From NCBI RefSeq assembly GCF_047607405.1, contig NZ_JASGDA010000088.1, positions 2,341 to 66,340 on the forward strand: a stretch of DNA of 64,000 nt, read 5' to 3'. Of this stretch, positions 25,920-39,781 are shown piece after piece. Numbering within the stretch: position 1 is the stretch's first letter; each line of letters begins with the position of its first letter. The position numbers and the translations under genes are program-made. The notes below the pieces were generated by a model. That model had not been told where the DNA came from. It ran no database searches and was given only the letters and a program-made list of their open reading frames with translations. The stretch is from Acidovorax sp. Lineage in GTDB: Bacteria > Pseudomonadota > Gammaproteobacteria > Burkholderiales > Burkholderiaceae_C.

Positions 25920-26351
25920 TCAGTTCGGAGAAAGCAGAGCGCGAATTTCAAATAATTCCCTGCGCACCGCATTGGGGTCGAGCGCGAAGCCCAGTGCGTC
26001 GATCGACAGATCGCCGCGTGCGCTGTCCAGCAGGATGCTGGGCAGTTCGGTGGCTTGCGCCTCGGCCTCGACCGCCGCCTCGTCACGCGCGGGGTGCGCC
26101 AGTTCTTGCAGCCGGTTGCGCGCGCCGCTGATGGTGAAGCCCTGGTCGTACAGCAGGTCGCGGATGCGGCGGATCATCAGCACCTCGTGGTGCTGGTAGT
26201 AGCGCCGGTTGCCGCGCCGCTTCATGGGGCGCAGCTGCGTGAACTCCTGCTCCCAATAGCGCAGCACGTGGGGCTTGACGCCGCACAGCTCCGCCACCTC
26301 GCCGATGGTGAAATAGCGCTTGGCAGGGATGGATGGAAGGAGGGTGCCCAT
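25920..26351 (-). CDS. MerR family transcriptional regulator
   Basis: It reads YFTIGEVAELCGVKPHVLRYWEQEF. It lies downstream of ihfA, the usual arrangement in betaproteobacteria. Confidence 0.85.
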   Translation of the reverse strand: MGTLLPSIPAKRYFTIGEVAELCGVKPHVLRYWEQEFTQLRPMKRRGNRRYYQHHEVLMIRRIRDLLYDQGFTISGARNRLQELAHPARDEAAVEAEAQATELPSILLDSARGDLSIDALGFALDPNAVRRELFEIRALLSPN

Positions 26352-26456
26352 GAAATGCTGCAGGTTCAGGCCGGAAAACCATCAAGGGTACTGCGGACCC
26401 GCGAAGACCGCCAGCGGCGCAGTCACAAAATTTGCACAATTTCATGGTTGACTGCG

Positions 26457-26804
26457 TCAGCCAGCCGTGTTTTGGATTTGCTCCTTGAGCTTGCTCCTGG
26501 CGTGAAAGGTGACCACGCGCCGCGCCTTGATCGGGATGGCCTCGCCCGTGCGCGGGTTGCGCCCGGGGCGCGGGGCCTTGGTGCGGATCTGGAAGTTGCC
26601 GAAGCCAGAGAGCTTCACGTCCTTGCCTTCCACCAGGCTCTGCGAGATGAGGTCGAAGAAGGCGTCGATCATGTCCTTGGACTCGCGCTTGTTCAGCCCG
26701 ATCTGGTCGAACAGCAGGTCGGCCAGCTGCGCCTTGGTGAGTGCCGGGGATTCCAGGCTTTCGACGGCGAATTCGATCATGGCATCGGTTCCCTTCAGGT
26801 TCAT
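26457..26804 (-). CDS. ihfA: integration host factor subunit alpha
   Basis: It contains [29 protein letters not shown]...[12 protein letters not shown]. The start at 26804 overlaps the pheT stop (TGATG). An alternative ATG is at 26780. Confidence 0.9.
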
Positions 26805-29251
26805 CACATGCGCAGCCGCGCGCCGGTGCGCCGGGCCAGTTGCGCCACCACGGCCTGTACGGCGGCGTCGATCTCCGCCTCGGTCAGCGTGGCCTCGTCG
26901 CGCGCCAGGGTCAGGCGCACGGCCAGGCTTTTCTCGCCCTGCGCAAGGCTGCCCGCCGGGGCTTCTTCGCCCGCGCGCAGCGGCTTGGGACGGTACACGT
27001 CGAACAGCACGGCCGAGCGCAGCATGCCGCCGTGTACCGCTTGTTCGACGGCCGCCATGATGTCGGCATGCGTGACGCGCTCGGACACGACCACGGCGAT
27101 GTCGCGCTCCACGGCCTGGTGCTTGGCGACGGGTTTGAACTGCGGCACGGCGCGCTGCAGCACGGCGTCCAGCTCCAGCTCGAACATCACGGGGGCCTGG
27201 GGCAAGTCCCAGGACTGGCGCCACTGCGGGTGCAGTTCGCCCACGAAGCCGATGGCGCGCTCGCCCAGCAGCACGCGCGCGCAGCGGCCCGGATGCATGG
27301 CCGGGTGCATGGCGGGCTCGAATCTGGCTTGCAACGGAGCCAGCAATGCCTCCACGTCGCCCTTCACGTCGAAGAAGTCGATGGGCTGGTCCTTGCGGCC
27401 CCATTGCAGCGCATCGGTCGGGCCGCAGGCCAGGCCCGCCACGCGCATGGGCTGGTGGAAGCCCTCGACGGTGGTGTCGGTGTTTTGCACGCCCGCGTCG
27501 CGCAGGAACACACGGCCCAGCTCGAACACGCGCACGCGCTGGGCCTTGCGGTCCACGTTGAATTTCAAAACTTGTAGCAATGAACCCAGCAAGGACGAGC
27601 GCATGACGCTCATTTGGCTTGCAATCGGGTTGAGCAGCTTGATGGGCTGGGCGTTGGCGGCCAGTTCGTGCTCCCAGCGCTCCTCGACGAAGCTGAAGTT
27701 GATCGTCTCCTGGTAGCCCAGGCCCGCAAGCCGACGGCGCACGGCGAAGGGACTGCGCGTGGCCTCGGGTGCGAGTTTGGGCGTGATGGGCGCGAGCGGC
27801 GGCGTGGTGGGCAGGTGGTTGTAGCCCACCATGCGCGCGACTTCCTCGATCAAATCTTCTTCGATGGTGAGGTCGAAGCGGTACGCGGGCGGCGCGACGG
27901 TCACCGTGCCATCGCCCTCTTGCACCGGCAGGCCCAGGCCGCGCAGCGCGTTGGCGCACTGCGCCTGCGTGAGCGGCATGCCGATGACCTTGGCCGCGCG
28001 CGCCACGCGCAACGTGACGGGCTGGGGCGCGGGCAGGTTGACGACCTGGTCGTCCATGGGGCCGCAGGCCGTGTCGGGCGTGCCGCAGATGTCGATGACG
28101 AGTTGCGTGATGCGCTCGATGTGCTCCACCGTCAGGCTGGGATCGACGCCGCGCTCGAAGCGGTGGCCCGCGTCGGTGGAGAAGTTGTAGCGGCGCGAGC
28201 GCCCCGCGACGGCCTTGGGCCACCAGAAGGCGGCTTCGATGTAGATGTGCTTGGTGTCGTCAGAGACGGCGGTCGCGTCGCCGCCCATGATGCCTGCCAG
28301 CGATTCGACTTGGGCAGCGTCGGCGATCACGCCCACCTTTTCATCGACGGTGATGGTGTTGCCGTTGAGCAGCTTGAGCTGCTCACCTGCCCTGCCCCAG
28401 CGGACTTGCAGGCCGCCGTGGATCTTGTCCAGGTCGAAGATGTGCGACGGGCGCCCAAACTCGAACATCACGTAGTTGGAGATGTCCACCAGCGGCGACA
28501 CGCCCCGCTGGCCGCAGCGCGCAAGGCGGTCGAGCATCCATTGCGGCGTTTGGGCGCGCGTGTTCACGTTGCGCACGATGCGGCCCGAGAAGCGGCCGCA
28601 CAGGTCGGTGGCGCTGACCTTGACGGGCAGCACGTCGGCCAGCGTGGACTTCACTGCGGGGAACGTCGGCTGCTTCAAGGGCGCACCCGTCAGCGCAGAC
28701 ACTTCGCGGGCGATGCCATAGACGCTCAGGCAGTGCGCGAGGTTGGGCGTGAGCTTGAGGGTGAACAGCGTGTCGTCCAGGTTCAGGTGCGTGCGGATGT
28801 CCTGCCCCACGGGCGCCGAAGCATCCAGCTCCAGCAGGCCGCCGTGGTCTTCCGACAGCTTGAGTTCACGCGCCGAGCACAGCATGCCCTGGCTTTCCAC
28901 GCCGCGCAGCTTGCCAACCTTGATGCGAAAGGGCTTGCCGTCGTCGCCCGGCGGCAGCTCGGCCCCCACCAGCGCGCACGGCACCTTGATGCCAACGCGG
29001 GCATTGGGCGCGCCGCACACGATGTTGAGCAAGGCCCCCTGCCCCACGTCCACCTGGCACACGCGCAAGCGGTCGGCGTCGGGGTGCTGCACGGCTTCCT
29101 TGATTTCGCCCACGACGATGTGCGTGAACGGCGGGGCCACGGGGCGCAGCTCTTCGACTTCCAGGCCCGCCATGGTCAGGGTGTCGGCCAGTTCTTGGGT
29201 GCTCAGCGGCGGGTTGCAGAATTCGCGCAACCAGGACTCGGGGAATTGCAT
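26804..29251 (-). CDS. pheT: phenylalanine--tRNA ligase subunit beta
   Basis: It is an 815-aa ORF starting [14 protein letters not shown], with canonical PheT features. Confidence 0.96.
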
Positions 29252-29283
29252 AGTGTGTGGTGGATTCTTGACGGTTGCTCTTG

Positions 29284-29373
29284 AAAAGTGAGCAGATAGC
29301 GCCTGTCTATCCTTGGTTTCAATATGAAAACATGCTGAAAGCCAATGGAATCAGGCGCTGGCAGCTCACTTTT
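29284..29373. repeat. ~90-bp imperfect palindrome related to the GATAGC repeat family (copy E)
   Basis: The outer arms are AAAAGTGAGC / GCTCACTTTT and the inner arms GATAGCGCCTG / CAGGCGCTGGC. It fills the pheT-pheS spacer. Confidence 0.6.
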
Positions 29374-29378
29374 TTGAA

Positions 29379-30431
29379 TTACTGGAACTGCGACAGGAAG
29401 CGGATGTCGCCGTCGAAGAACAGGCGCAGGTCGTTCACGCCATAGCGCAACATGGTCAGCCGGTCGGGCCCCATGCCGAAGGCGAAGCCGATGTACTTTT
29501 CAGGGTCGAGCCCCATGTTGCGCACGACGTTGGGGTGGACTTGCCCACTGCCCGCCACCTCCAGCCAGCGGCCCGCCAGCGGCCCGGTCTGGAACTGGAT
29601 GTCGATCTCAGCGCTCGGCTCGGTGAAGGGGAAGAAGCTGGGGCGAAAGCGCAGCACCAGGTCGTCGCTTTCAAAGAACGTGCGGCAGAAGTCGGTGAAC
29701 ACGACCTTCAGGTCCTTGAAGCTCACGTTCTCGCCAATCCACAAACCCTCGCACTGGTGGAACATGGGCGAGTGCGTGGCGTCGCTGTCCACGCGGTAGG
29801 TGCGGCCCGGGGCGATGACGCGGATCTCGGGCATGGGCTGGCCGGCATCCAGCAGCGCGCGGTGCGTCTTGACGTGCTGCACCGCGTGGCGGATCTGCAT
29901 GGGGCTGGTGTGCGTGCGCAGCAGGTTGGGGGCGGTGGCGGTGCCGCCCTCCACGTAGAAGGTGTCGTGCATGGAACGCGCGGGGTGGTCCTCGGGCGTG
30001 TTCAGCGCGGTGAAGTTGAACCAGTCGGTCTCGATCTCGGGGCCCTCGGCCACGTCGAAACCCATGGAGCCGAAGATGCCCTGGATGCGCTCCAGCGTGA
30101 GCGACACGGGGTGCAGCCCGCCCTGCCCGCGCTGGCGGCCCGGCAGGCTCACGTCCAGCGCCTCGGCCTTCAACTGCGCTTGCAATTCAGCGTCGGCGAG
30201 CTGCTGGCGGCGCGCGGTCAGAGCGGCCTCGATGGCCTGTTTGGCCACGTTGATGGCGGCGCCACGGGACTTCTTCTCGTCCACCGACAGCTGGGCCATG
30301 CCCTTCATGAGTTCCGTCACGCGGCCCGACTTGCCCAGAAACTGCGCCTTGGCGTTTTCCAGCTCGGCGGGGGTGGCGCTTTGCGCGAACAGTTGCGCCG
30401 CGCTCTCGACCAGGGAATCCAACTCGTTCAT
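29379..30431 (-). CDS. pheS: phenylalanine--tRNA ligase subunit alpha
   Basis: It is a 350-aa ORF with the [11 protein letters not shown] and [14 protein letters not shown] motifs. Confidence 0.96.
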
Positions 30432-30452
30432 ACCGACTCTTTATCGACTCGT

Positions 30453-30494
30453 GAAAATAAACAAGGGCTAGCGCCTTTTCAAGCCCTAGCCCTT
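30453..30494 (-). terminator. terminator-like hairpin between rplT and pheS
   Basis: The minus strand has AAGGGCTAG, a 14-nt loop, CTAGCCCTT, then GTTTATTTTC. It ends 21 nt before the pheS ATG. Confidence 0.5.
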
Positions 30495-30524
30495 GCTGTT
30501 ATTGCGCAAGCAGCTATCAAAACG
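30463..30524 (-). repeat. GATAGCTG repeat, copy F (variant 3' half)
   Basis: The minus strand reads TTTTGATAGCTGCTTGCGCAATAACAGCAAGGGCTAGGGCTTGAAAAGGCGCTAGCCCTT. Confidence 0.65.
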
Positions 30525-30542
30525 ATAGCCGCTATCGTGAAC

Positions 30543-30905
30543 TCAAGCAGCAGCCAGCTTGGCCTTGACTTGTTCCACGATGCTGCCGAAGGCAGCCTTG
30601 TCGTGTACCGCGAGGTCGGCCAGCATCTTGCGGTCGATCTGGATGGACGCCTTCTTCAGGCCGTTGGTGAACTGGCTGTAGGTCAGGCCCAGTTCGCGCG
30701 AAGCGGCGTTGATACGGGCAATCCACAGTTGGCGGAACACGCGCTTCTTGGTGCGGCGGTCACGGTAGGCGTATTGCCCAGCCTTCATCACCGCCTGCTT
30801 GGCGATGCGGAAGACGTTACCGCGGCGACCACGGAAGCCCTTGGCAAGGGCGAGAACTTTCTTGTGACGGGCGCGGGCCGTTACACCACGTTTGACGCGA
30901 GGCAT
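30543..30905 (-). CDS. rplT: 50S ribosomal protein L20
   Basis: It starts [28 protein letters not shown]. Confidence 0.97.
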
Positions 30906-30930
30906 GTGTGTACTCCTTGTTCGTCGTTAA

Positions 30931-31134
30931 TTACAGGCCAGCACCGGGCAGCATCTGCGCCATGTGACCCATGTTGGTCTCATGCACAGCCACTGCGCCA
31001 CGCAGGTGACGCTTGTTCTTGGTGGTCTTCTTGGTCAAGATGTGACGCTTGAAGGCTTGACCGCGCTTGACGGCGCCACCGGGACGAACGCGGAAACGCT
31101 TTTTCGCGCTGCTCTTGGTCTTCATTTTGGGCAT
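30931..31134 (-). CDS. rpmI: 50S ribosomal protein L35
   Basis: It starts [20 protein letters not shown]. The start was trimmed from track ORF 30931..31212. Confidence 0.95.
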
Positions 31135-31271
31135 GTGAATGCTCCTTTGTTTGTGCTCGTGAGGCGTTTGCGCTGAATGCGCAACCTTGTTGGCCCCGAG
31201 ACACTTCTTCATCTGCCAGCGCCCCTTGCCAAAGCACGGGCCGCCAGCGGATTCCTTGCTATCTATCTCAC

Positions 31272-31895
31272 TCAGGCTGCCGGAGCAGCCGGAGCAGCCG
31301 GAGCAGCCGCAGCACCCGAACCAGCTTCCGCCGCTGGCTTGCCAGCGGGCTTCTTCTTGCCAGGCGCGATCATCATGATCATCTGGCGGCCTTCCAGCTT
31401 CGGGAACTGCTCGACGAGGATGGTGTCACCCAGGTCGTCGCGGATGCGGTTGAGCAGCGCCAAACCCAGCTCCTGGTGCGTGATCTCGCGGCCACGGAAG
31501 CGCAGCGTGATCTTGCACTTGTCGCCATCGGCCAAAAAGCGGCGGATGTTGCGCAGCTTGATGTTGTAGTCGCCATCGTCCGTGCCGGGGCGGAATTTGA
31601 CTTCCTTGATCTCGATGACCGTCTGCTTGGCCTTGGCCTCGGCGGCGCGCTTTTGCTCCTGGTACTTGAACTTTCCGTAGTCCATGAGACGGCATACGGG
31701 CGGGTTCGCCGTGGCGGCGATTTCGACCAGGTCCACATCCAGCTCGCCCGCCATGCGCAGGGCTTCCATGAGGCTGACGACGCCCAGGGGCTCGTTGTCA
31801 GGACCCGAGAGGCGAACCTCGGGGGCCATGATTTCACGGTTCAGGCGGTGCTTGCGCTCCTCGCGCTGGCGACGATCACGAAATTCAGTAGCGAT
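31272..31895 (-). CDS. infC: translation initiation factor IF-3 (non-AUG start)
   Basis: The in-frame extension upstream of the track ORF reads [37 protein letters not shown] lies 6 nt before an ATC at 31895, and an ATA is at 31901. Confidence 0.85.
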
Positions 31896-31983
31896 GGCTA
31901 TCTTCCTTCAATCAAAACACTACAAACTCTGTAGCAACAACCGCGCATCTGGCATGCGCCAAAGCATGTTTTCATGAAAAGAA

Positions 31984-33903
31984 TCAGGCTTTGGTGGCGA
32001 TGTCCTGGGCGATCAGCTCGGCGAACGCTTCGAGAGACATCACGCCGAGGTCACGATTGCCCCGGGCGCGCACTGCGACGGCTTCTGCGGCCTTTTCCTT
32101 GTCGCCCGCGACGAGGATGTACGGCAGCTTTTGCAACGAATGCTCACGTATTTTATACGTAATCTTCTCGTTTCGCAGGTCGGTCACCACCCTAAGGTCT
32201 TGATTCGGCAGTGCTTTTTGCAGTTTTGCGGCGATTTCGCGACAGTAGTCGCCCTGCCCGTCGGTGATGTTCAGCACGGCGACCTGCACCGGCGCCAGCC
32301 ACGTGGGCAGCGCGCCTGCGTGCTGCTCGATCAGGATGCCGATGAAGCGCTCCAGACTGCCCACGATGGCGCGGTGCAGCATGATGGGGCGGTGGCGCGC
32401 GCCGTCTTCGCCGACGAATTCGGCGTCCAGCCGCTCGGGCATGTTCGGATCGACCTGGATGGTGCCGCACTGCCATTCGCGGCCCAGCGCGTCCTTCAGC
32501 GTGTATTCGATCTTGGGGCCGTAGAAGGCGCCCTCGCCCGGCAAATACGTGAATTCGCAGCCCGAGGCGCGCAGGCCGTCGGCCAGCGCCGCCTCGGCCT
32601 TGTCCCAGCTCTCCTCGCTGCCGATGCGCTTTTCGGGGCGCGTGGACAGGCGATAGAGGATGTCGGTAAAGCCGAAGTCCTTATAGACCTTCTGCAGCAG
32701 CGTGGTGAAGGCCGCCACCTCACCCTGGATCATGTCCTCGGTACAGAAGATGTGGCCGTCGTCCTGCGTGAAGCCGCGCACGCGCATGATGCCGTGCAGG
32801 CCGCCCGAGGGCTCGTTGCGGTGGCAGTTGCCGAATTCGCCAAAGCGCAGCGGCAGGTCGCGGTAGCTCTTGATGCCCTGCTTGTAGATGAGGATGTGGC
32901 CGGGACAGTTCATCGGCTTGAGCGCGTAGTCGCGCTTCTCGCTCTCGGTGATGAACATGTTCTCGCGGTACTTGTCCCAGTGGCCCGTCTTCTCCCACAG
33001 GCTCTTGTCCAGGATCTGCGGGCCCTTGACTTCCAGGTAGCCGTTGTCGCGATAGACGCGGCGCATGTACTGCTCCACCTGCTGCCACACCGTCCAGCCC
33101 TTGGGGTGCCAGAACACCGTGCCAGGCGAGTGCTCGTCGATGTGGAACAGGTCCAGCTCGCGGCCCAGGCGGCGGTGGTCGCGCTTCTCGGCCTCCTCGA
33201 TGCGCTGGATGTAGGCTTCCAGGTCCTTCTTGTCGGCCCAGGCCGTGCCGTAGATGCGCTGGAGCTGCTCGTTCTTGGCGTCGCCGCGCCAGTAGGCGCC
33301 CGCGAGCTTGGTCAGCTTGAACACCTTCAGGAAGCGCGTGTTGGGTACGTGCGGGCCGCGGCACATGTCCACGTATTCCTGGTGGTAGTACAGGCCCATC
33401 GCCTTCTCGTCGGGCATGTCCTCCACCAGGCGCAGCTTGTAGTCCTCGCCGCGCGACTTGAACACGTCGATCACCTCGGCGCGCGGCGTCATCTTCTTGA
33501 CCACGTCGTAGTCCTGCGCGATGAGTTCCTTCATGCGCTGCTCGATGGCGGCCATGTCCTCGGGCGTGAAGGGGCGCTCGTAGGCGATGTCGTAGTAGAA
33601 GCCCTCGTCGATCACCGGCCCGATCACCATCTTGGCCGTGGGGTAGAGCTGCTTGACGGCGTGGCCCACTAGGTGGGCGCAGGAGTGGCGGATGATGTCC
33701 AGCCCGTCCTGGTCCTTGGGCGTGATGATCTGCAGCTTCGCATCGTGGTCGATGCGGTCGCAGGCATCGACGAGCCTGCCATCCACCTTGCCCGCCACGG
33801 TGTTCTTGGCAAGGCCGGGGCCGATGGACTGCGCCACCTCGGCCACTGTGACGGGGCCGGGGTACTCGCGCTGCGAACCGTCTGGGAGCGTGATGTAAAT
33901 CAT
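31984..33903 (-). CDS. thrS: threonine--tRNA ligase
   Basis: It is a 639-aa ORF with an [13 protein letters not shown] domain and a class II catalytic core. Confidence 0.97.
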
Positions 33904-33923
33904 GGTGTGGGAATCCTTGTCTT

Positions 33924-33958
33924 CAAAACAAAAAGCGCGGAACGATGTCCGCGCTTTT
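33924..33958 (-). terminator. intrinsic terminator / attenuator hairpin in the thrS leader
   Basis: The minus strand has AAAAGCGCGGA, loop CATCGT, TCCGCGCTTTTTGTTTTG. It ends about 20 nt upstream of the thrS ATG. Confidence 0.65.
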
Positions 33959-34008
33959 GTCGAGGGAGGCGAATGGCTTGAATCTCGTGCAGGCGCGAAC
34001 GGCCAGCC

Positions 34009-34050
34009 TCAGCGGCTGGTGAACTTCTCCGTCGTAGTTCGCGGTGTCAT
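34009..34050 (-). CDS. putative thrS leader peptide MTPRTTTEKFTSR
   Basis: ATG ACA CCG CGA ACT ACG ACG GAG AAG TTC ACC AGC CGC TGA. Five of 13 codons are Thr, including three in a row. GAGAAAGG lies upstream. Complementary segments flank it (see findings). Confidence 0.45.
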   Translation of the reverse strand: MTPRTTTEKFTSR

Positions 34051-34141
34051 AACCGACAGTGCCTTTCTCGCCCTTGTGCGTTGCAGAACCAGCATTCTAC
34101 CGGGCCCGCACCGGCGAGCACAGTAGCGGCCTGCATTGCCA

Positions 34142-37100
34142 TCACCCCACCCACCTGCGCGCATTGCGCCAGATGCGCATCCAGGGGCTGAGGGCGCTCT
34201 TGTCGCCGCTCGTCCAGCTCATCTGCACGTTGCGGAACACGCGCTCGGGGTGGGGCATGAGGGCGGTGAAGCGGCCGTCTGCCGTGGTCACGCTGGTGAG
34301 GCCGCCGGGGCTGCCGTTGGGGTTGAAGGGGTACTGCTCGGTGGCGGCGCCGTGGTGGTCCACGTAGCGCATGGCGGCGATGGCCTTGTCTGCGTTGCCA
34401 CGGTACTTGAAGTTGGCGTAGCCCTCGCCGTGGGCGACGGCGATGGGCAGGCGGCTGCCGGCCATGCCTGCGAAGAACAGGCTGGGGGAGTCGAGCACTT
34501 CGACCAGCGACAGGCGGGCCTCGAAGCGTTCGCTCTGGTTGGTGGTGAAGCGCGGCCAGTCCTCTGCGCCGGGGATGATGTCGGCCAGTTCGGCGAACAT
34601 CTGGCAGCCGTTGCACACACCCAGACCAAAGGTGTCGGTGCGGCCGAAGAAGCCCTGGAACTGGTCGGCCAACTGTGGGTTGAAGGTGATGGAACGCGCC
34701 CAGCCGATGCCCGCGCCCAGCGTGTCGCCATAGCTGAAGCCGCCACAGGCGACGACGCCCTTGAAGTCCTGCAACTGGACGCGACCCGTTTGCAGGTCGG
34801 TCATGTGGACGTCGAACGCCTCGAAGCCTGCTTCGGTGAAGGCGTAGGCCATTTCGACGTGCGAGTTGACGCCCTGCTCGCGCAGGATGGCGACCTTGGG
34901 CTTTGCCAGGTTGAGGAAGGGGGCGGCTACGTCTTCGGCGGGGTCGAAGGTCAGGTGCAGGTGCAAGCCGGGGTCGGCGGGCTCGCCCGCTGCGGCGTGC
35001 TCGGCATCGGCGCAGGCGGGGTTGTCGCGCTGCTGGCAGATCTTCCAGCTCACAGCGTCCCAGACTTGGTGCAGGTCGCTCAAAGATGCGCTGAACACGG
35101 CCTTGGCGTCGCGCCAGATTTGCAGTTCGCCTTTGCCTGCGTCGATGGTGGATGAGGCCGGGCGGGTTTTGCCGATGAAGTGGCTCCACTTGGACAGGCC
35201 GTGCTCGCGCAAGGTCTGCATGACTTCGTTGCGCTCTGCGGTGCGCACTTGCAGCACGATGCCGAGTTCTTCGTTGAACAGGGCCTTGAGCGTGAGTTCT
35301 TCGCGGCGGGCGCTGACTTGTTGCGCCCAGTTCTTGGCGTCGCCCGTTTCCATGCGGCTGTCGCTGATGCCGTCGCCTTCGGTGACGAGCATGTCCACGT
35401 TGAGCGCCACGCCCACGTGGCCTGCGAAGGCCATTTCGGCCACCGCCGCGAGCAGGCCGCCGTCGCTGCGGTCGTGGTAGGCCAGGATGTGCCCTTTAGC
35501 GCGCAGGGCGTTGACGGCGTTGACGGTGTGGATGAGGTCTTGCGCGTCGTTGAGGTCGGGCACGCCATCCTTCTCAGGACTGCCGCTTTGCTCCAGCGTC
35601 TGGCCGAGGATGCTGCCGCCCATGCGGCATTGGCCTTTGCCCAAGTCAATGAGGACGAGGGTCGTATCCTCTTCCGTCGCGTCGAGTTGCGGCGTGAGCG
35701 TGCCGCGCACGTCGGAGAGCGTCGCGAAGGCGCTCACGATCAGGCTGACGGGGGATGTGACCTTTTTCTTCTCCGCGCCTTCGCTCCACTGCGTGCGCAT
35801 CGACAACGAGTCCTTGCCCACGGGGATGCTGATGCCTAGAGCGGGACACAGCTCCATGCCCACGGCCTTGACGGTGGCGTACAGGTCGGCGTCCTCGCCC
35901 GGCTCGCCGCAGGCGGCCATCCAGTTGGCGGAGAGTTTGACGCGCGGCAGTTCAATGGGCGCGGCCAGCAGGTTGGTAATGGCCTCGGCCACGGCCATGC
36001 GGCCCGAGGCGGGCGCGTTGAGGGCGGCCAGCGGCGTGCGCTCGCCCATGCTCATGGCCTCGCCCGCGAAGCCCTTGTAATCGGCCAGCGTGACGGCGCA
36101 GTCGGCCACGGGCACCTGCCAGGGGCCGACCATCTGGTCGCGGTGGGATAGCCCCCCCACCGTGCGGTCGCCGATGGTGATGAGGAAGCGCTTGGACGCC
36201 ACGGTGGGGTGCGCCAGCACGTCGATGACGGCTTTTTGCAGCGGCACGCCGGTCAGATCCATGGGCGCGAAGGTGCGCTGCACGGTCGTCACGTCGCGGT
36301 GCATCTTGGGCGGCTTGCCCAGCAGCACGTCCATGGGCATATCGACCGGGTACTTCTGGTCGCCTGCTGCCACGGCAGTGTCTGCCAGCACCAACTGGCG
36401 CTGCTCGGTGGCCGTGCCGATGACGGCGAAGGGGCAGCGCTCGCGCTCGCAGAACGCCTGGAACAAAGGCAGCGATTCGGGCGCGATGGCGAGCACGTAG
36501 CGCTCCTGGCTTTCGTTGCTCCAGATTTCCTTGGGGGCCATGCCCGATTCTTCGAGCGGCACGGCGCGCAGGTCGAACCGCGCACCGCGCCCGGCATCGT
36601 TGGTCAATTCAGGGAAGGCGTTGGACAGCCCGCCCGCGCCCACGTCGTGGATCGCCAGGATGGGGTTTTGCGCGCCCTGCGCCCAGCAGTGGTTGATGAC
36701 CTCTTGCGCGCGGCGCTCGATCTCGGGGTTGCCGCGCTGCACCGAGTCGAAGTCCAGCTCCGCCGCGTTGGTGCCCGTCGCCATGGAACTGGCCGCGCTG
36801 CCGCCCATGCCGATCCGCATGCCGGGGCCGCCCAGCTGGATGAGCAGCGAGCCTGCGGGGAATTCAATCTTCTTGGTCAACTCTGCGTCGATCACGCCGA
36901 CGCCGCCCGCGATCATGATGGGCTTGTGGTAGCCGCGCTGGATGCCGCCCACGTTCTGCTCGTATTCGCGAAAGTACCCCGCGAGGTTGGGCCTGCCGAA
37001 TTCGTTGTTGAACGCCGCGCCGCCCAGCGGCCCCTCGACCATGATCTGCAAGGGGCTGGCGATGTGCTCGGGCTTGCCCACGGTGCTGCCCCAGAGCTTG

Positions 37101-38161
37101 GAGACGGTGAACCCCGTCAGCCCCGCCTTGGGCTTGGAGCCGCGCCCCGTCGCGCCCTCGTCGCGGATCTCGCCGCCCGCGCCGGTGGACGCACCCGGGA
37201 AGGGCGAGATGGCCGTGGGGTGGTTGTGCGTTTCCACCTTCATCAGCACATGGTGGGTTGCACTACTCTTTTGATAGCTGCTTGCGCCCGTCCCATCTGC
37301 GCTAGAGGCCATTTTGGCTATGAATCTCTCCACCGTATGGCCTTCCATGATGGAGGCGTTGTCCGAATACGCCACCACCGTGTGCTGCGGCGCGAGTTGG
37401 TGCGTGTTGCGGATCATGCCGAACAGCGATTTGTCCTGCGCCACGCCGTCGATGGTGAACTGGGCGTTGAAGATCTTGTGGCGGCAGTGCTCGCTGTTGG
37501 CCTGGGCGAACATCATCAGCTCCACGTCCGTGGGGTTGCGCGCCAGGGCGGTGAAGGCGTTGACCAGGTAGTCGATTTCGTCGTCGGCCAGCGCCAGGCC
37601 GAAGCGGGCGTTGGCGGCTTCCAAAGCCGTGCGGCCACCACCGAGAACGTTGACGTGCTCCATGGGCGCGGGTTGCAGCTCGGTGAACAGCGCAGCGGCG
37701 GCGGCGCGCTCCATCACCACGGATTCGGTCATGCGGTCGTGCAGCAGCGCGGCGACCTGGGCCTTTTGCCCGTCGTCCAGTTCAGGCGTCTTGCCCAGCA
37801 GGCCGGATTTGAGAGCGACGCGGTATTCGGTAATGCGCTCCACACGGCGGATGGCGATGCCGCAGTTGCGCGCAATATCGGTGGCCTTGCTGGCCCAGGG
37901 CGACAGCGTGCCCAGGCGTGGCGTGACGATGATGGCCGCGCCATCCGCCGGGCCTGTGTAGGGTTCGCCATAGGCCAGCAGCGCGGACAGCCGCTCCTGC
38001 TGGGCGGGCGTGGGGGCCGCGTCCGTCACCACCAGATGCACGAAGCGCGCCGCGATGCCCTCGATCTTGGGGTGGATGGCTGCCAGGGCGGGTTGAAGCT
38101 GCTGGGCGCGGAAGGCGCTGAGGGCATTGCCGCCCTCGAAGGTGCTGATGTGGTGGGTCAC
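34142..38161 (-). CDS. purL: phosphoribosylformylglycinamidine synthase (large single-chain form)
   Basis: It is a 1339-aa ORF with [36 protein letters not shown] and a C-terminal glutaminase domain GVCNGCQM. Confidence 0.97.
37266..37322 (+). repeat. GATAGCTG-hairpin repeat, copy G, inside the purL CDS (antisense to purL)
   Basis: Sequence CTTTTGATAGCTGCTTGCGCCCGTCCCATCTGCGCTAGAGGCCATTTTGGCTATGA. It is read by purL as [19 protein letters not shown]. Confidence 0.85.
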
Positions 38162-38288
38162 GGGAGTGGCCTTTGGAAAGAGGGCGGGATTTTACCTGGG
38201 GGCTTCCTGTGGCGATCTCGTGGTTCATTCACACGAAAAATATCCCGTGTTCTAAAATCGCGTGCCAAAAACACACAGAGGATCTGCC

Positions 38289-38516
38289 ATGGCCCGCAAC
38301 ATCACCTTCACCGCCGACGAGGCCCTGATCGAAGCCGCCCGCGAAGCCGCCCGTGCCGATAACACCACGCTCAACGAGCAGTTCCGCCTGTGGCTGGAGA
38401 GCTATGCGCGCAAGCGGCAGGCGGACAGGGCGATGGAGACGCTGGCGCGCATCCGCAGCTACGCCAGTTCCGGCGGCCTGAAGATGACCCGCGAGGAAAT
38501 GAATGAGCGCCGCTGA
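38289..38516 (+). CDS. RHH-type antitoxin (VapB-like)
   Basis: It starts MARNITFTADEALIEAAREAARADNTTLNEQFRLWLESYA. It overlaps the downstream PIN gene by 14 nt. Confidence 0.7.
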   Translation: MARNITFTADEALIEAAREAARADNTTLNEQFRLWLESYARKRQADRAMETLARIRSYASSGGLKMTREEMNERR

Positions 38517-38937
38517 TTTCCTCGACAGCAATGTCGTGGTCTATGCCTTTGACGCGGCGGGCGGCGAGAAAAGCAGCATCGCCAGCGGCATCATCAACAC
38601 CGCCTTGCGCCAGGGCAACGCCATCATCAGCTTTCAGGTCGTGCAGGAAACGCTGAACGTCATAGGCCGCAAATTCAGCCGCGTCGCCACCCCCAAGGAT
38701 CGCAAGGTCGCGCTGGAACAAGTCCTCGTGCCGCTCTGGCGCATCCACCCCAGCCCCGCGCTGTACGCACGCGGGCTGGGCATCCAGGAGCGCTACGGCT
38801 TCAGCTTCTACGACAGCCTGATCGTCGCCGCCGCGCTGGAAGGCGGCTGCACGCGGCTGCTCAGCGAAGACATGCAGCACGGGCAGCAGATCGAGGGGCT
38901 GCGGGTGGAGAACCCGTTTCTCGGCACCCGCGCCTGA
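38503..38937 (+). CDS. vapC: PIN-domain toxin (VapC-like)
   Basis: It has FLDSNVVVYAFD and SFYDSLIVAAA, which carry PIN acidic residues. Confidence 0.8.
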   Translation: MSAADFLDSNVVVYAFDAAGGEKSSIASGIINTALRQGNAIISFQVVQETLNVIGRKFSRVATPKDRKVALEQVLVPLWRIHPSPALYARGLGIQERYGFSFYDSLIVAAALEGGCTRLLSEDMQHGQQIEGLRVENPFLGTRA

Positions 38938-38965
38938 AAAGCCCTGAATGGGATAATCCCGCCCC

Positions 38966-39781
38966 ATGAGCATCACCATCAAAAGCGCCGAAGACATCGA
39001 GGGCATGCGCGTCGCGTGCCGCCTCGCATCCGAGGTGCTGGACTACATCGCCCCCCACATCAAGCCCGGCATCACCACCAAGGACATCGACCGCCTGGGC
39101 GCCGAGTGCATGGCGCAGCAGGGCACCGTGTCGGCCACCGTGGGCTACCAGCCGCCCGGCTACCCGCCCTACCCCGCATCGCTGTGTACCTCGGTCAACC
39201 ACGTGGTGTGCCACGGCATTCCCAACGACAAGCCGCTGAAGAAGGGCGACATCGTGAACGTGGACGTGACCGTCATCACCAAGGACGGCTGGTACGGCGA
39301 CAACAGCCGCATGTACATCATTGGCGAAGGGTCCATCGCCGCCAGGCGCCTGTGCGCACTGACCTTCGAGGCCATGTGGCACGGCATCGTGCAGGTCAAG
39401 CCTGGCGCGCACCTGGGCGACGTGGGGCATGCCATCCAGAAGTTTGCGGAAGGGCATGGCTTTTCCGTCGTGCGCGAGTTCTGCGGCCACGGCATCGGCA
39501 AGAGGTTCCATGAGGAGCCCCAGGTGCTGCACTACGGCCGCCCCGGAACGCTCGAAGAACTGGTGCCCGGCATGGTGTTCACCATCGAGCCCATGATCAA
39601 CGCAGGCCGCCGCGAGGTGAAGGAGTTCGGCAACGACGGCTGGACCATCGTCACCAAGGACCACAGCCTGTCGGCACAATGGGAGCACACGGTGCTGGTG
39701 ACCGAGACCGGGTACGAGGTGATGACCCTGTCGGCAGGCTCGCCGCCGCTGCCATCCTTCGTGACCTCTACCAAGACCTGA
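38966..39781 (+). CDS. map: type I methionine aminopeptidase
   Basis: It has [22 protein letters not shown] and FCGHGIG motifs. Confidence 0.96.

Follow-up and report, generated by a model that had tools for sequence, protein, structure and literature searches.

A probable threonine leader-peptide attenuator upstream of thrS in Burkholderiales

The window analyzed here, a stretch of 64,000 nucleotides from Acidovorax sp. (contig NZ_JASGDA010000088.1), carries on its minus strand the gene thrS, which encodes threonyl-tRNA synthetase (ThrRS), preceded by a spacer of 238 nt. We conclude that this spacer probably contains a ribosome-mediated leader-peptide transcription attenuator, through which the supply of charged tRNA-Thr would adjust thrS transcription. 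The spacer holds a leader open reading frame (ORF) with a Shine-Dalgarno (SD)-like box, cognate codons in frame, mutually exclusive pairings (as judged from complementarity and limited covariation), a stop codon abutting one of the pairing segments (segment 2) and a predicted terminator before thrS. The conclusion is supported in silico by the conservation and complementarity of these parts, by a selection for Thr specific to one frame and by a stop codon whose position is coupled to segment 2. We infer that the ORF would be translated, that transcription would terminate at the hairpin and that the outcome would respond to the charging of tRNA-Thr. The proposed attenuator is widely conserved, apparently uncatalogued and mechanistically orthodox.

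An earlier note, made from the sequence of the window alone, had proposed an attenuator in which segments 1 and 2, 2 and 3, or 3 and 4 pair (1:2, 2:3, and 3:4). This logic is supported in silico by in-frame ACN triplets, by a stop codon that tracks segment 2 and by covariation at segment 3. All elements that the note listed, specifically the -10-like box, the ORF, the segments, the stop-codon hairpin and the terminator, were found again in place.

Proposed mechanism

Transcription would start approximately 37 nt upstream of the mini-ORF, and a ribosome would load at the SD-like sequence GAGAAAGG and translate MTPRTTT... When Thr-tRNA is plentiful, the ribosome would reach the UGA stop codon and either sit near segment 2 or leave. 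Once the ribosome is gone, segment 1 (CGCGAAC) would pair with segment 2 (GUUCGCG), leaving segment 3 free for segment 4; with the terminator thus formed, RNA polymerase would stop at the U-tract, 20 nt before thrS. When Thr-tRNA is scarce, for example through low ThrRS activity, the ribosome would wait at the ACA codon 2 or at the ACU-ACG-ACG codons 5–7. Segment 1 falls within the footprint of a ribosome waiting at either site. With segment 1 covered, segment 2 would capture the newly made segment 3 (8 bp), the terminator would be blocked and transcription would proceed into thrS and possibly infC-rpmI-rplT-pheST. Since the thrS product charges tRNA-Thr, this would constitute a homeostatic feedback, as with pheM-pheST.

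Conservation of the leader upstream of thrS

Taken alone, the spacer of the window is unremarkable against shuffled sequences, so the case rests on the comparison with relatives. One genome per species was scanned with ThrS, yielding 80 loci with a ThrS 69–87% identical to that of the window, the closest being from Paracidovorax avenae. These loci span Comamonadaceae-type genera, a group comprising Rubrivivax, Roseateles, Methylibium, and Aquincola, and Ralstonia, with Pseudomonas, Lysobacter, Luteimonas, and Psychrobacter as outgroups. A mini-ORF starting with MTPRT is located 123–176 nt upstream of thrS in about 36 of them. A profile of the conserved 5' block detects 39 of the 80 genome loci, all of Burkholderiales type, and none of the outgroup loci. 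The leave-one-out profile built from 31 relatives has a single match in the 64-kb window, at 34087–33925 on the minus strand (E = 1.7e-34); further copies of the leader were looked for within the window and none was found.

We found the exact 18-mer GGTTATGACACCGCGAAC in at least 120 metagenome contigs. Among the matches listed, thrS follows within 1.2 kb downstream in 104 and 14 contigs end too early, which leaves two exceptions, a chance hit in coding sequence (L195) and a degenerate orphan copy (L192). Thus, 104 of the 106 assessable loci among these matches carry thrS downstream, and a search for other gene contexts of the leader returned the two exceptions only. Because the 18-mer sites nearly always precede thrS, the element appears specific to this gene.

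The start codon, the SD-like box, the Thr codons 2 and 5–6(–7), segments 1–4 and the U-tract are all kept in Comamonadaceae-type and Rubrivivax/Roseateles-type Burkholderiales, and Ralstonia holds the same parts in altered form. In total, the arrangement is present before thrS in more than 140 distinct sequences, irrespective of the upstream gene. The earlier note had asked whether the mini-ORF, its Thr codons and three complementary segments recur in relatives, and they do so in the genome loci as well as in the metagenome loci.

Segment 2 reads GUUCGCGC in group A (Acidovorax, Comamonas), GGUAGnCCGCGC in group B (Variovorax), CGUAGUCCGCGCG in group C (Rhodoferax, Polaromonas), GGCCGCGG in group D (Roseateles, Rubrivivax), and GUUCGCAC in group E, a metagenomic group with a tRNA-Val gene upstream. 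In all subgroups its sequence complements two partners, segment 1 inside the ORF and the 5' terminator arm. The segment 2 of group C pairs with CGCGAACUAC in the ORF, so that helix 1:2 covers Thr codons 5–6.

Group E comprises loci L102, L103, L126, L127, L134, L136, L143, L155, L157–L159, L161, L177, L179, L184, L199, and L200. The ThrS of these loci is only about 55–65% identical to that of the window, and a tRNA 3' end like that of the Ralstonia tRNA-Val gene lies upstream. A Burkholderiaceae-like origin of the group may be inferred from this tRNA-Val gene alone, which is also found in Ralstonia. The ORF of group E has 10 codons and mostly reads MTPRTRxExx, and its codon 6, usually Arg, extends helix 1:2. 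On the 5' side of the AUG only GAAAGG is retained, 3–4 nt nearer to the AUG.

The leader open reading frame

Codon statistics were drawn from 146 distinct leaders; codons 1–5 of the metagenome leaders are partly fixed by the search pattern, while those of the genome set, which was selected by ThrS, are not. Codons 1–5 are nearly fixed as ATG ACA CCG CGA AC(T/G). Codon 6 encodes Thr in 100 leaders (68%; ACA 34, ACG 31, ACC 23, ACT 12) and codon 7 in 61 (42%), followed by 14–21% Thr at codons 8–11, with a median of four Thr per approximately 13 residues. Between codon 6 and the ORF end, 21.7% of the in-frame triplets are ACN, compared with 1.8 and 3.9% in the two alternative frames, and from codon 8 on the values are 11.9% in frame versus 2.1 and 3.4%. 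Beyond codon 5, no residue is as enriched as Thr, which is twice as frequent as the next one, Ser (10.8%). In the window, the 13 codons plus stop read ATG ACA CCG CGA ACT ACG ACG GAG AAG TTC ACC AGC CGC TGA, with Thr at five positions (2, 5, 6, 7, and 11).

The ORFs are between 10 and 27 codons long and the peptides are otherwise unconserved. Their ends follow segment 2: the median distance from the end of the stop codon to this segment is 2 nt (interquartile range -1 to 7), the distance is within ±12 nt in 87.5% of the leaders, and the position of the ORF end correlates with the start of segment 2 (Spearman rho 0.54, p = 1e-9). The gap in the window is 8 nt. The leader start codon is kept in all relatives but one (L048). 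In Ralstonia the start codon is shifted upstream (MIQAPRTTTASERQ) and the frame through PRTTT and the Thr run is unchanged. The box AGAAAGG is complementary to CCUUUCU, the 3' end of many bacterial 16S rRNAs.

Several nucleotides around the start are also constrained. The block CAAGAGCGAG is near-invariant in Comamonadaceae-type and Rubrivivax-type leaders and absent in group E, and the GGUU that precedes the AUG is invariant, as is codon 2 (ACA). The only structure predicted at the leader AUG is a hairpin of 3–4 bp (GGU/ACC) with the AUG in the loop, which does not covary.

In the six neighboring genes, ACA and ACT account for 1.7 and 0.6% of the Thr codons and CGA for 0.4% of the Arg codons; the fixed codons 2, 4, and 5 are thus very rare codons. 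Very rare codons are a known hallmark of regulatory leader peptides. They would also suit a general sensor of translation speed or ribosome availability, in which any slowing over the first seven codons masks segment 1 and raises thrS-infC-rpmI-rplT expression. Such a sensor could also accommodate the CGA at codon 4 (145 of the 146 leaders), the roughly one third of leaders that lack consecutive Thr codons, the MTPRTRxExx peptides of group E and the rare AGG or AGA at codon 6 of some leaders, and the genes downstream do encode translation factors. It does not account for the predominance of Thr over any other residue after codon 5, for a frame-specific enrichment that draws on all four Thr codons, the common ACC and ACG among them, or for an element found only before thrS. 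We therefore consider a general speed sensor rather unlikely.

Alternative RNA structures and their conservation

In the window, segment 2 (GUUCGCGC) and segment 3 (GCGCGGAC) form 8 bp including one G-U pair. The duplex energies are -15.2 kcal/mol for 2:3, -16.4 kcal/mol for the terminator and -11.7 kcal/mol for 1:2. As the terminator is slightly more stable than 2:3, the control must be kinetic, as in classical attenuators. Constraint folds of the leader RNA of the window gave the expected series of states: the free RNA adopts helix 1:2, the stop-codon hairpin and the terminator (-57.6 kcal/mol), a ribosome footprint with codon 6 in the A site on a transcript cut after segment 3 leads to the 2:3 helix of 8 bp, and a ribosome placed at the UGA gives the terminator again.

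The pairings are retained among relatives. In a MAFFT alignment of 32 leaders, 73.5% of the cells are paired for 1:2, 87.9% for 2:3 and 94.7% for 3:4, and these values fall to 23–57% when the partner columns are slid as a control. When the best duplex partners were sought across the spacer, with the position of segment 2 left unspecified, the best partners of segments 1 and 3 coincided at segment 2. This was so for 32 of the 36 genome loci and for 66 of the 81 metagenome loci; among these 81, 64 had a joint shuffle p ≤0.05.

Covariation is found at several positions. The innermost terminator pair covaries (AU14, UA6, CG4), and so does the stop-codon hairpin in the RNAalifold consensus, where columns 81–83 pair with 106–108 (GC15, AU6, GU3). 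In an alignment of 79 sequences that includes group E, column 178 of segment 3 (C or U) changes both with column 198 of segment 4 (CG63, UA14, UG2) and with column 116 of segment 2 (GC59, AU9, GU4), with G-U intermediates present. This three-way compensation is the strongest single evidence that 2:3 would form, and it answers the question of compensatory changes raised by the earlier note, since the segment-3 position covaries with both of its partners. The terminator stem reads GCGCGG/CCGCGC throughout groups A–D and GUGCGG/CCGCAC in group E; together with the A- and U-tracts it is unchanged in most relatives. All four segments depend on one CGCG core, which explains why the sequences are so frozen.

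The fold of the window, some Acidovorax-type leaders and Ralstonia show a long-range pairing of GGGCGAG(AAAGG) with the pyrimidine-rich stretch before the terminator. As the Rhodoferax-type group lacks this pairing, it was rejected as a family feature.

So conserved an RNA might also be read as a structure that acts independently of translation, with a trans-acting factor (ThrRS, another protein or a tRNA) picking the hairpin and the ORF being incidental. Candidate binding sites would be the GGUUAUGACACC hairpin and two invariant parts, the 5' block and the stem of the terminator. The nucleotides of the 18-mer remain conserved even where ThrS identity drops to about 55–65%, the hairpin persists in lineages without a leader, the terminator loop of the Acidovorax-type group often contains NGU triplets, and one locus (L048) has no leader ATG. 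An incidental ORF is difficult to reconcile with ACN triplets that are enriched in one frame with the wobble position free to vary, with a stop codon that tracks segment 2, with an SD-like box that survives when the rest of the 5' untranslated region changes, and with the frame that Ralstonia keeps despite its moved start codon. In addition, the terminator loops (3–8 nt) are variable in sequence and lack an anticodon-loop consensus, and there is no match to the T-box or another Rfam family. Taken together, this makes a translation-independent RNA very unlikely. A more specific version, a mimic of the tRNA-Thr anticodon arm recognized by ThrRS in the terminator loop or around CUGGUUA, was rejected as a structural assignment, given the variable loops and the absence of a flanking stem, and is kept as a low-probability rival.

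Putative promoter and independence from purL

Hexamers resembling a -10 box (TAAAAT, TAGAAT, TACAAT; at least four of six matches to TATAAT) peak at -52 to -45 from the leader AUG, with 90 occurrences among 147 distinct upstream regions and a background of approximately 4 per 4-nt bin outside the peak. No -35 match was found, and the promoter scan of the window revealed no full sigma-70 -35/-10 consensus. The -10-like box would place the transcription start near 34087, approximately 37 nt upstream of the mini-ORF.

The gene purL lies upstream of thrS in the window only and in none of the 80 related loci, which indicates a local rearrangement in this genome. The upstream neighbor of leader-bearing relatives is an isocitrate-lyase-like (aceA-like) gene in 20 cases, tRNA-Val(GAC) in Ralstonia and other genes elsewhere. 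In several relatives the upstream gene has its own terminator, followed by the -10 box and then the leader. The isocitrate-lyase-like product, from the commonest neighbor, ends in ...GSTEEEQFH. A conserved string MSHQQEVG...EEEQFH, which surfaced as a candidate leader because the ORF finder takes any start codon, was rejected as the C-terminus of this protein.

These observations bear on the fallback of the earlier note, according to which the hairpin would simply be the purL terminator; the mini-ORF and segments would then be a product of chance in a GC-rich spacer. The terminator scan of the window does show no further terminator between purL and the leader hairpin, and the whole spacer folds no better than shuffled sequences. 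Yet the same arrangement precedes thrS in relatives that never have purL upstream, sometimes behind a separate terminator of the upstream gene, and the -10-like box keeps a fixed distance to the leader. A plain purL terminator is thus extremely improbable.

Organization of the locus

The order on the minus strand is purL (34142–38161), the 238-nt spacer (from the purL stop codon at 34144–34142 to the thrS ATG at 33903), thrS, infC, rpmI, rplT, pheS, and pheT. An NCBIfam search confirmed the identities of purL, thrS, infC, rplT, pheS, and pheT. The terminator scan describes the hairpin at the DNA level as AAAAGCGCGGA / TCCGCGCTTTT, with 11 pairs of which six are G-C. The positions of the elements are given in Table 1.

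Table 1. Features of the thrS leader region in the window (positions are those of the 64,000-nt stretch; leader elements are predicted).
Feature	Position	Strand	Basis
thrS (threonine--tRNA ligase), putatively regulated gene	31984..33903	-	TIGR00418, E = 1.2e-214; ORF list
-10-like promoter box TAGAAT	34094..34099	-	Sequence; positional peak in relatives
Conserved 5' block CACAAGGGCGAGAAAGGCA, includes SD-like GAGAAAGG	34060..34078	-	Near-invariant in 32 aligned leaders
SD-like GAGAAAGG	34069-34062	-	11 nt upstream of leader ATG
Leader ORF, 13 codons + TGA, product MTPRTTTEKFTSR	34009..34050	-	Sequence; relatives
Leader Thr codons	ACA 34047-34045, ACT 34038-34036, ACG 34035-33, ACG 34032-30, ACC 34020-18	-	Sequence
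Segment 1 CGCGAAC (codons 3-5)	34037..34043	-	Pairs with segment 2 in minimum-free-energy fold
Stop-codon hairpin CCAGCC-GCUGA-GGCUGG, nested in helix 1:2	34003..34019	-	Single-sequence fold; RNAalifold consensus
Segment 2 GUUCGCGC, GUUCGCG(C), alternative partner of segment 1 or segment 3	33993..34000	-	Folds, relatives
Terminator hairpin, segments 3 + 4: AAAAGCGCGGA-CAUCGU-UCCGCGCUUUU	33931..33958	-	Terminator scan; energy -16.4 kcal/mol
U-tract continuation UGUUUUG, end 20 nt before thrS ATG	33924..33930	-	Sequence; terminator scan

Weighing the attenuator

A number of observations weigh against the attenuator and should be set beside the evidence above. Within the window, the fold of the spacer does not stand out from those of shuffled sequences (z = -1.25), the 1:2 duplex on its own reaches a shuffle p of 0.16, and a ribosome at the UGA would reach only the first bases of segment 2. 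Across the relatives, the duplex energies of single helices improve only modestly on those of shuffled sequences (median p 0.1–0.22). The covariation is thin, because the CGCG core of all four segments hardly varies, and the change seen in group E is essentially one evolutionary event.

The Thr codons are likewise less uniform than the window suggests. The earlier note had pointed to three consecutive Thr codons; this run is present in the window (codons 5–7) and does not hold as a universal trait, since 46 of the 146 leaders have just one Thr codon in the run that starts at codon 5. Thr is fixed only at codons 2 and 5. Group E encodes Arg (CGY) at codon 6, so that its Thr specificity would rest on codons 2 and 5. 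The exceptional locus L048 reads ATA in place of the leader ATG. Finally, the nucleotide invariance of GGUUAUGACACCGCGAAC and of CAAGAGCGAG upstream of it goes beyond what coding and 1:2 pairing would require, and about 11 related loci without the leader ORF keep the same hairpin beside a -10-like box.

The attenuator model thus does not fully explain the GCGCGG/CCGCGC hairpin kept in leaderless lineages, the invariant GGUUAUGACA and the CAAGAGCGAG block. These features could make up a site bound by a trans-acting factor such as ThrRS or another protein, which would place Burkholderiales thrS under the combined control of ribosome and protein at one terminator; sensing could already take place at the initiation-proximal codon 2 via the minor tRNA-Thr(UGU). 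We regard such a combined control as unlikely, and the ribosome-mediated attenuator as the probable reading.

Divergent copies and neighboring spacers

The Burkholderiales loci without a leader are L004, L011, L016, L024, L031, L040, L043, L051, L067, L071, and L073. They contain no 5' block and carry a AAGCGCGG-loop-CCGCGCTTTT hairpin 15–55 nt upstream of thrS, approximately 15–40 nt after a GTAAAAT-type -10-like box. This promoter-proximal hairpin could reflect a recent loss of the leader, or could act as a leaky terminator or a 5' stabilizer.

In Ralstonia (L021–L023, positions ~2048–2503), tRNA-Val(GAC) adjoins the leader upstream, and another 155 nt lie between the terminator and thrS. 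This stretch contains a promoter-like sequence (TTGACT-17 nt-GAATAA) and further predicted hairpins, and hence possibly a second, unattenuated promoter. In L027 (~2444–2503), a deletion fuses segment 1 to the 3' arm of the terminator (ATGACACCGCGAACGGTCCCGCGCTGTTTTTG). In the orphan copy L192, the 5' block, ORF and segment 2 remain, and the next 600 nt contain neither a terminator nor thrS.

Two further sites in the operon of the window deserve mention. The rplT-pheS spacer (30432–30542, minus strand) contains a strong hairpin, CAAGGGCUAG...CUAGCCCUUG, followed by UUUAUUUU. Neither a Phe-rich mini-ORF nor an Rfam match was found in this spacer, and the lack of such a mini-ORF before pheST indicates that the organism seems to be without an E. 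coli-type pheM leader. At the start of infC (~31829–31900, minus strand), the frame of IF3 is open upstream of the first ATG (31829), reading ...AUA GCC AUC GCU ACU GAA UUU CGU..., which suggests a non-ATG start of the AUA, AUC or AUU type. Non-ATG starts are known for infC autoregulation in other bacteria.

Significance

The described modes of thrS control are the tRNA-mimic translational autorepression of E. coli, the T-boxes of Firmicutes and, tentatively, leader peptides in Streptomyces. If the proposal is true, it adds a well-conserved, order-wide leader-peptide attenuator of thrS in Burkholderiales, an order with many environmental genera as well as plant and opportunistic pathogens. It would be another case of sensing systems swapped before one gene, and would provide a compact, naturally occurring sensor of Thr-tRNA charging whose sensing codons lie directly on segment 1. 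A definition of the family (18-mer core plus terminator) is at hand and usable for Rfam and for the annotation of intergenic regions. As the mechanism is classical, the concepts of attenuation are unchanged.

Comparison with known systems

A scan of positions 26000–39000 against Rfam 15 (E ≤ 10) returned nothing at the locus and two chance-level hits elsewhere; in this range Thr_leader (RF00506), Phe_leader and the T-box gave no match. The peptide string MTPRTT was not found in the full-text papers searched. Nor did the full-text literature yield a description for Betaproteobacteria, although an unread comparative study from 2010 may hold a prior prediction. That study, by Lopatovskaya, Seliverstov, and Lyubetsky, reportedly deals with the attenuation of aminoacyl-tRNA biosynthesis operons.

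The E. coli thrS operator shares with the Burkholderiales leader an autoregulatory feedback on thrS through the 5' leader. In E. coli, ThrRS binds mimics of the tRNA-Thr anticodon arm beside the SD sequence, which is a protein-RNA repression of translation, whereas here a hairpin with a U-tract is followed by 27 unstructured nt up to the thrS AUG. The fold of the window shows no structure between the U-tract and this AUG, and a U-NGU-A-like loop near the thrS SD or AUG, as in the E. coli operator, was not found: the loops are 3–8 nt long and about half contain GU. The thrS T-boxes of Firmicutes also sense the charging of tRNA-Thr and choose between terminator and antiterminator, but they read the uncharged tRNA directly, without a ribosome, by means of a specifier codon and the T-box sequence. 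Here, no Rfam T-box match was obtained and the leader of approximately 160 nt is occupied by the ORF.

Among leader-peptide systems, thrL-thrABC of enterobacteria shares the use of Thr codons in a leader peptide to drive a terminator/antiterminator switch, and differs in controlling threonine biosynthesis rather than the synthetase. The enterobacterial thrL carries eight Thr and four Ile codons, whereas the sensing codons of the Burkholderiales leader are codons 2 and 5–7, directly on segment 1. Since Thr_leader finds no match even at the permissive threshold, the two are not homologous.

The earlier note knew of no leader-peptide attenuator for thrS; one had in fact been proposed already, the thrL-thrS leader peptide of Streptomyces lividans (MKRVRPFLETTPGFVPAR) (PMC8079986). 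It shares the target gene and the proposed principle, but belongs to another phylum and has an unrelated peptide with two Thr codons on a leaderless transcript (PMC8079986). According to its authors it has no clear U-rich terminator (PMC8079986), and it is not conserved with the Burkholderiales leader. Classical attenuators have also been predicted for trpS and leuS of Streptomyces, with pheM-pheST cited as the precedent for attenuation of an aminoacyl-tRNA synthetase (aaRS) gene (PMC1262725).

The E. coli pheM-pheST system is likewise a classical leader-peptide attenuator of an aaRS gene, situated in the same thrS-infC-rpmI-rplT-pheST cluster, and consists of an ORF of approximately 13–14 codons in which the cognate codon is abundant, with alternative hairpins and a terminator after it. 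It differs in amino acid, target gene and position, and there is no sequence similarity. The thrS leader is homologous within Burkholderiales, and analogous rather than homologous to pheM and thrL.

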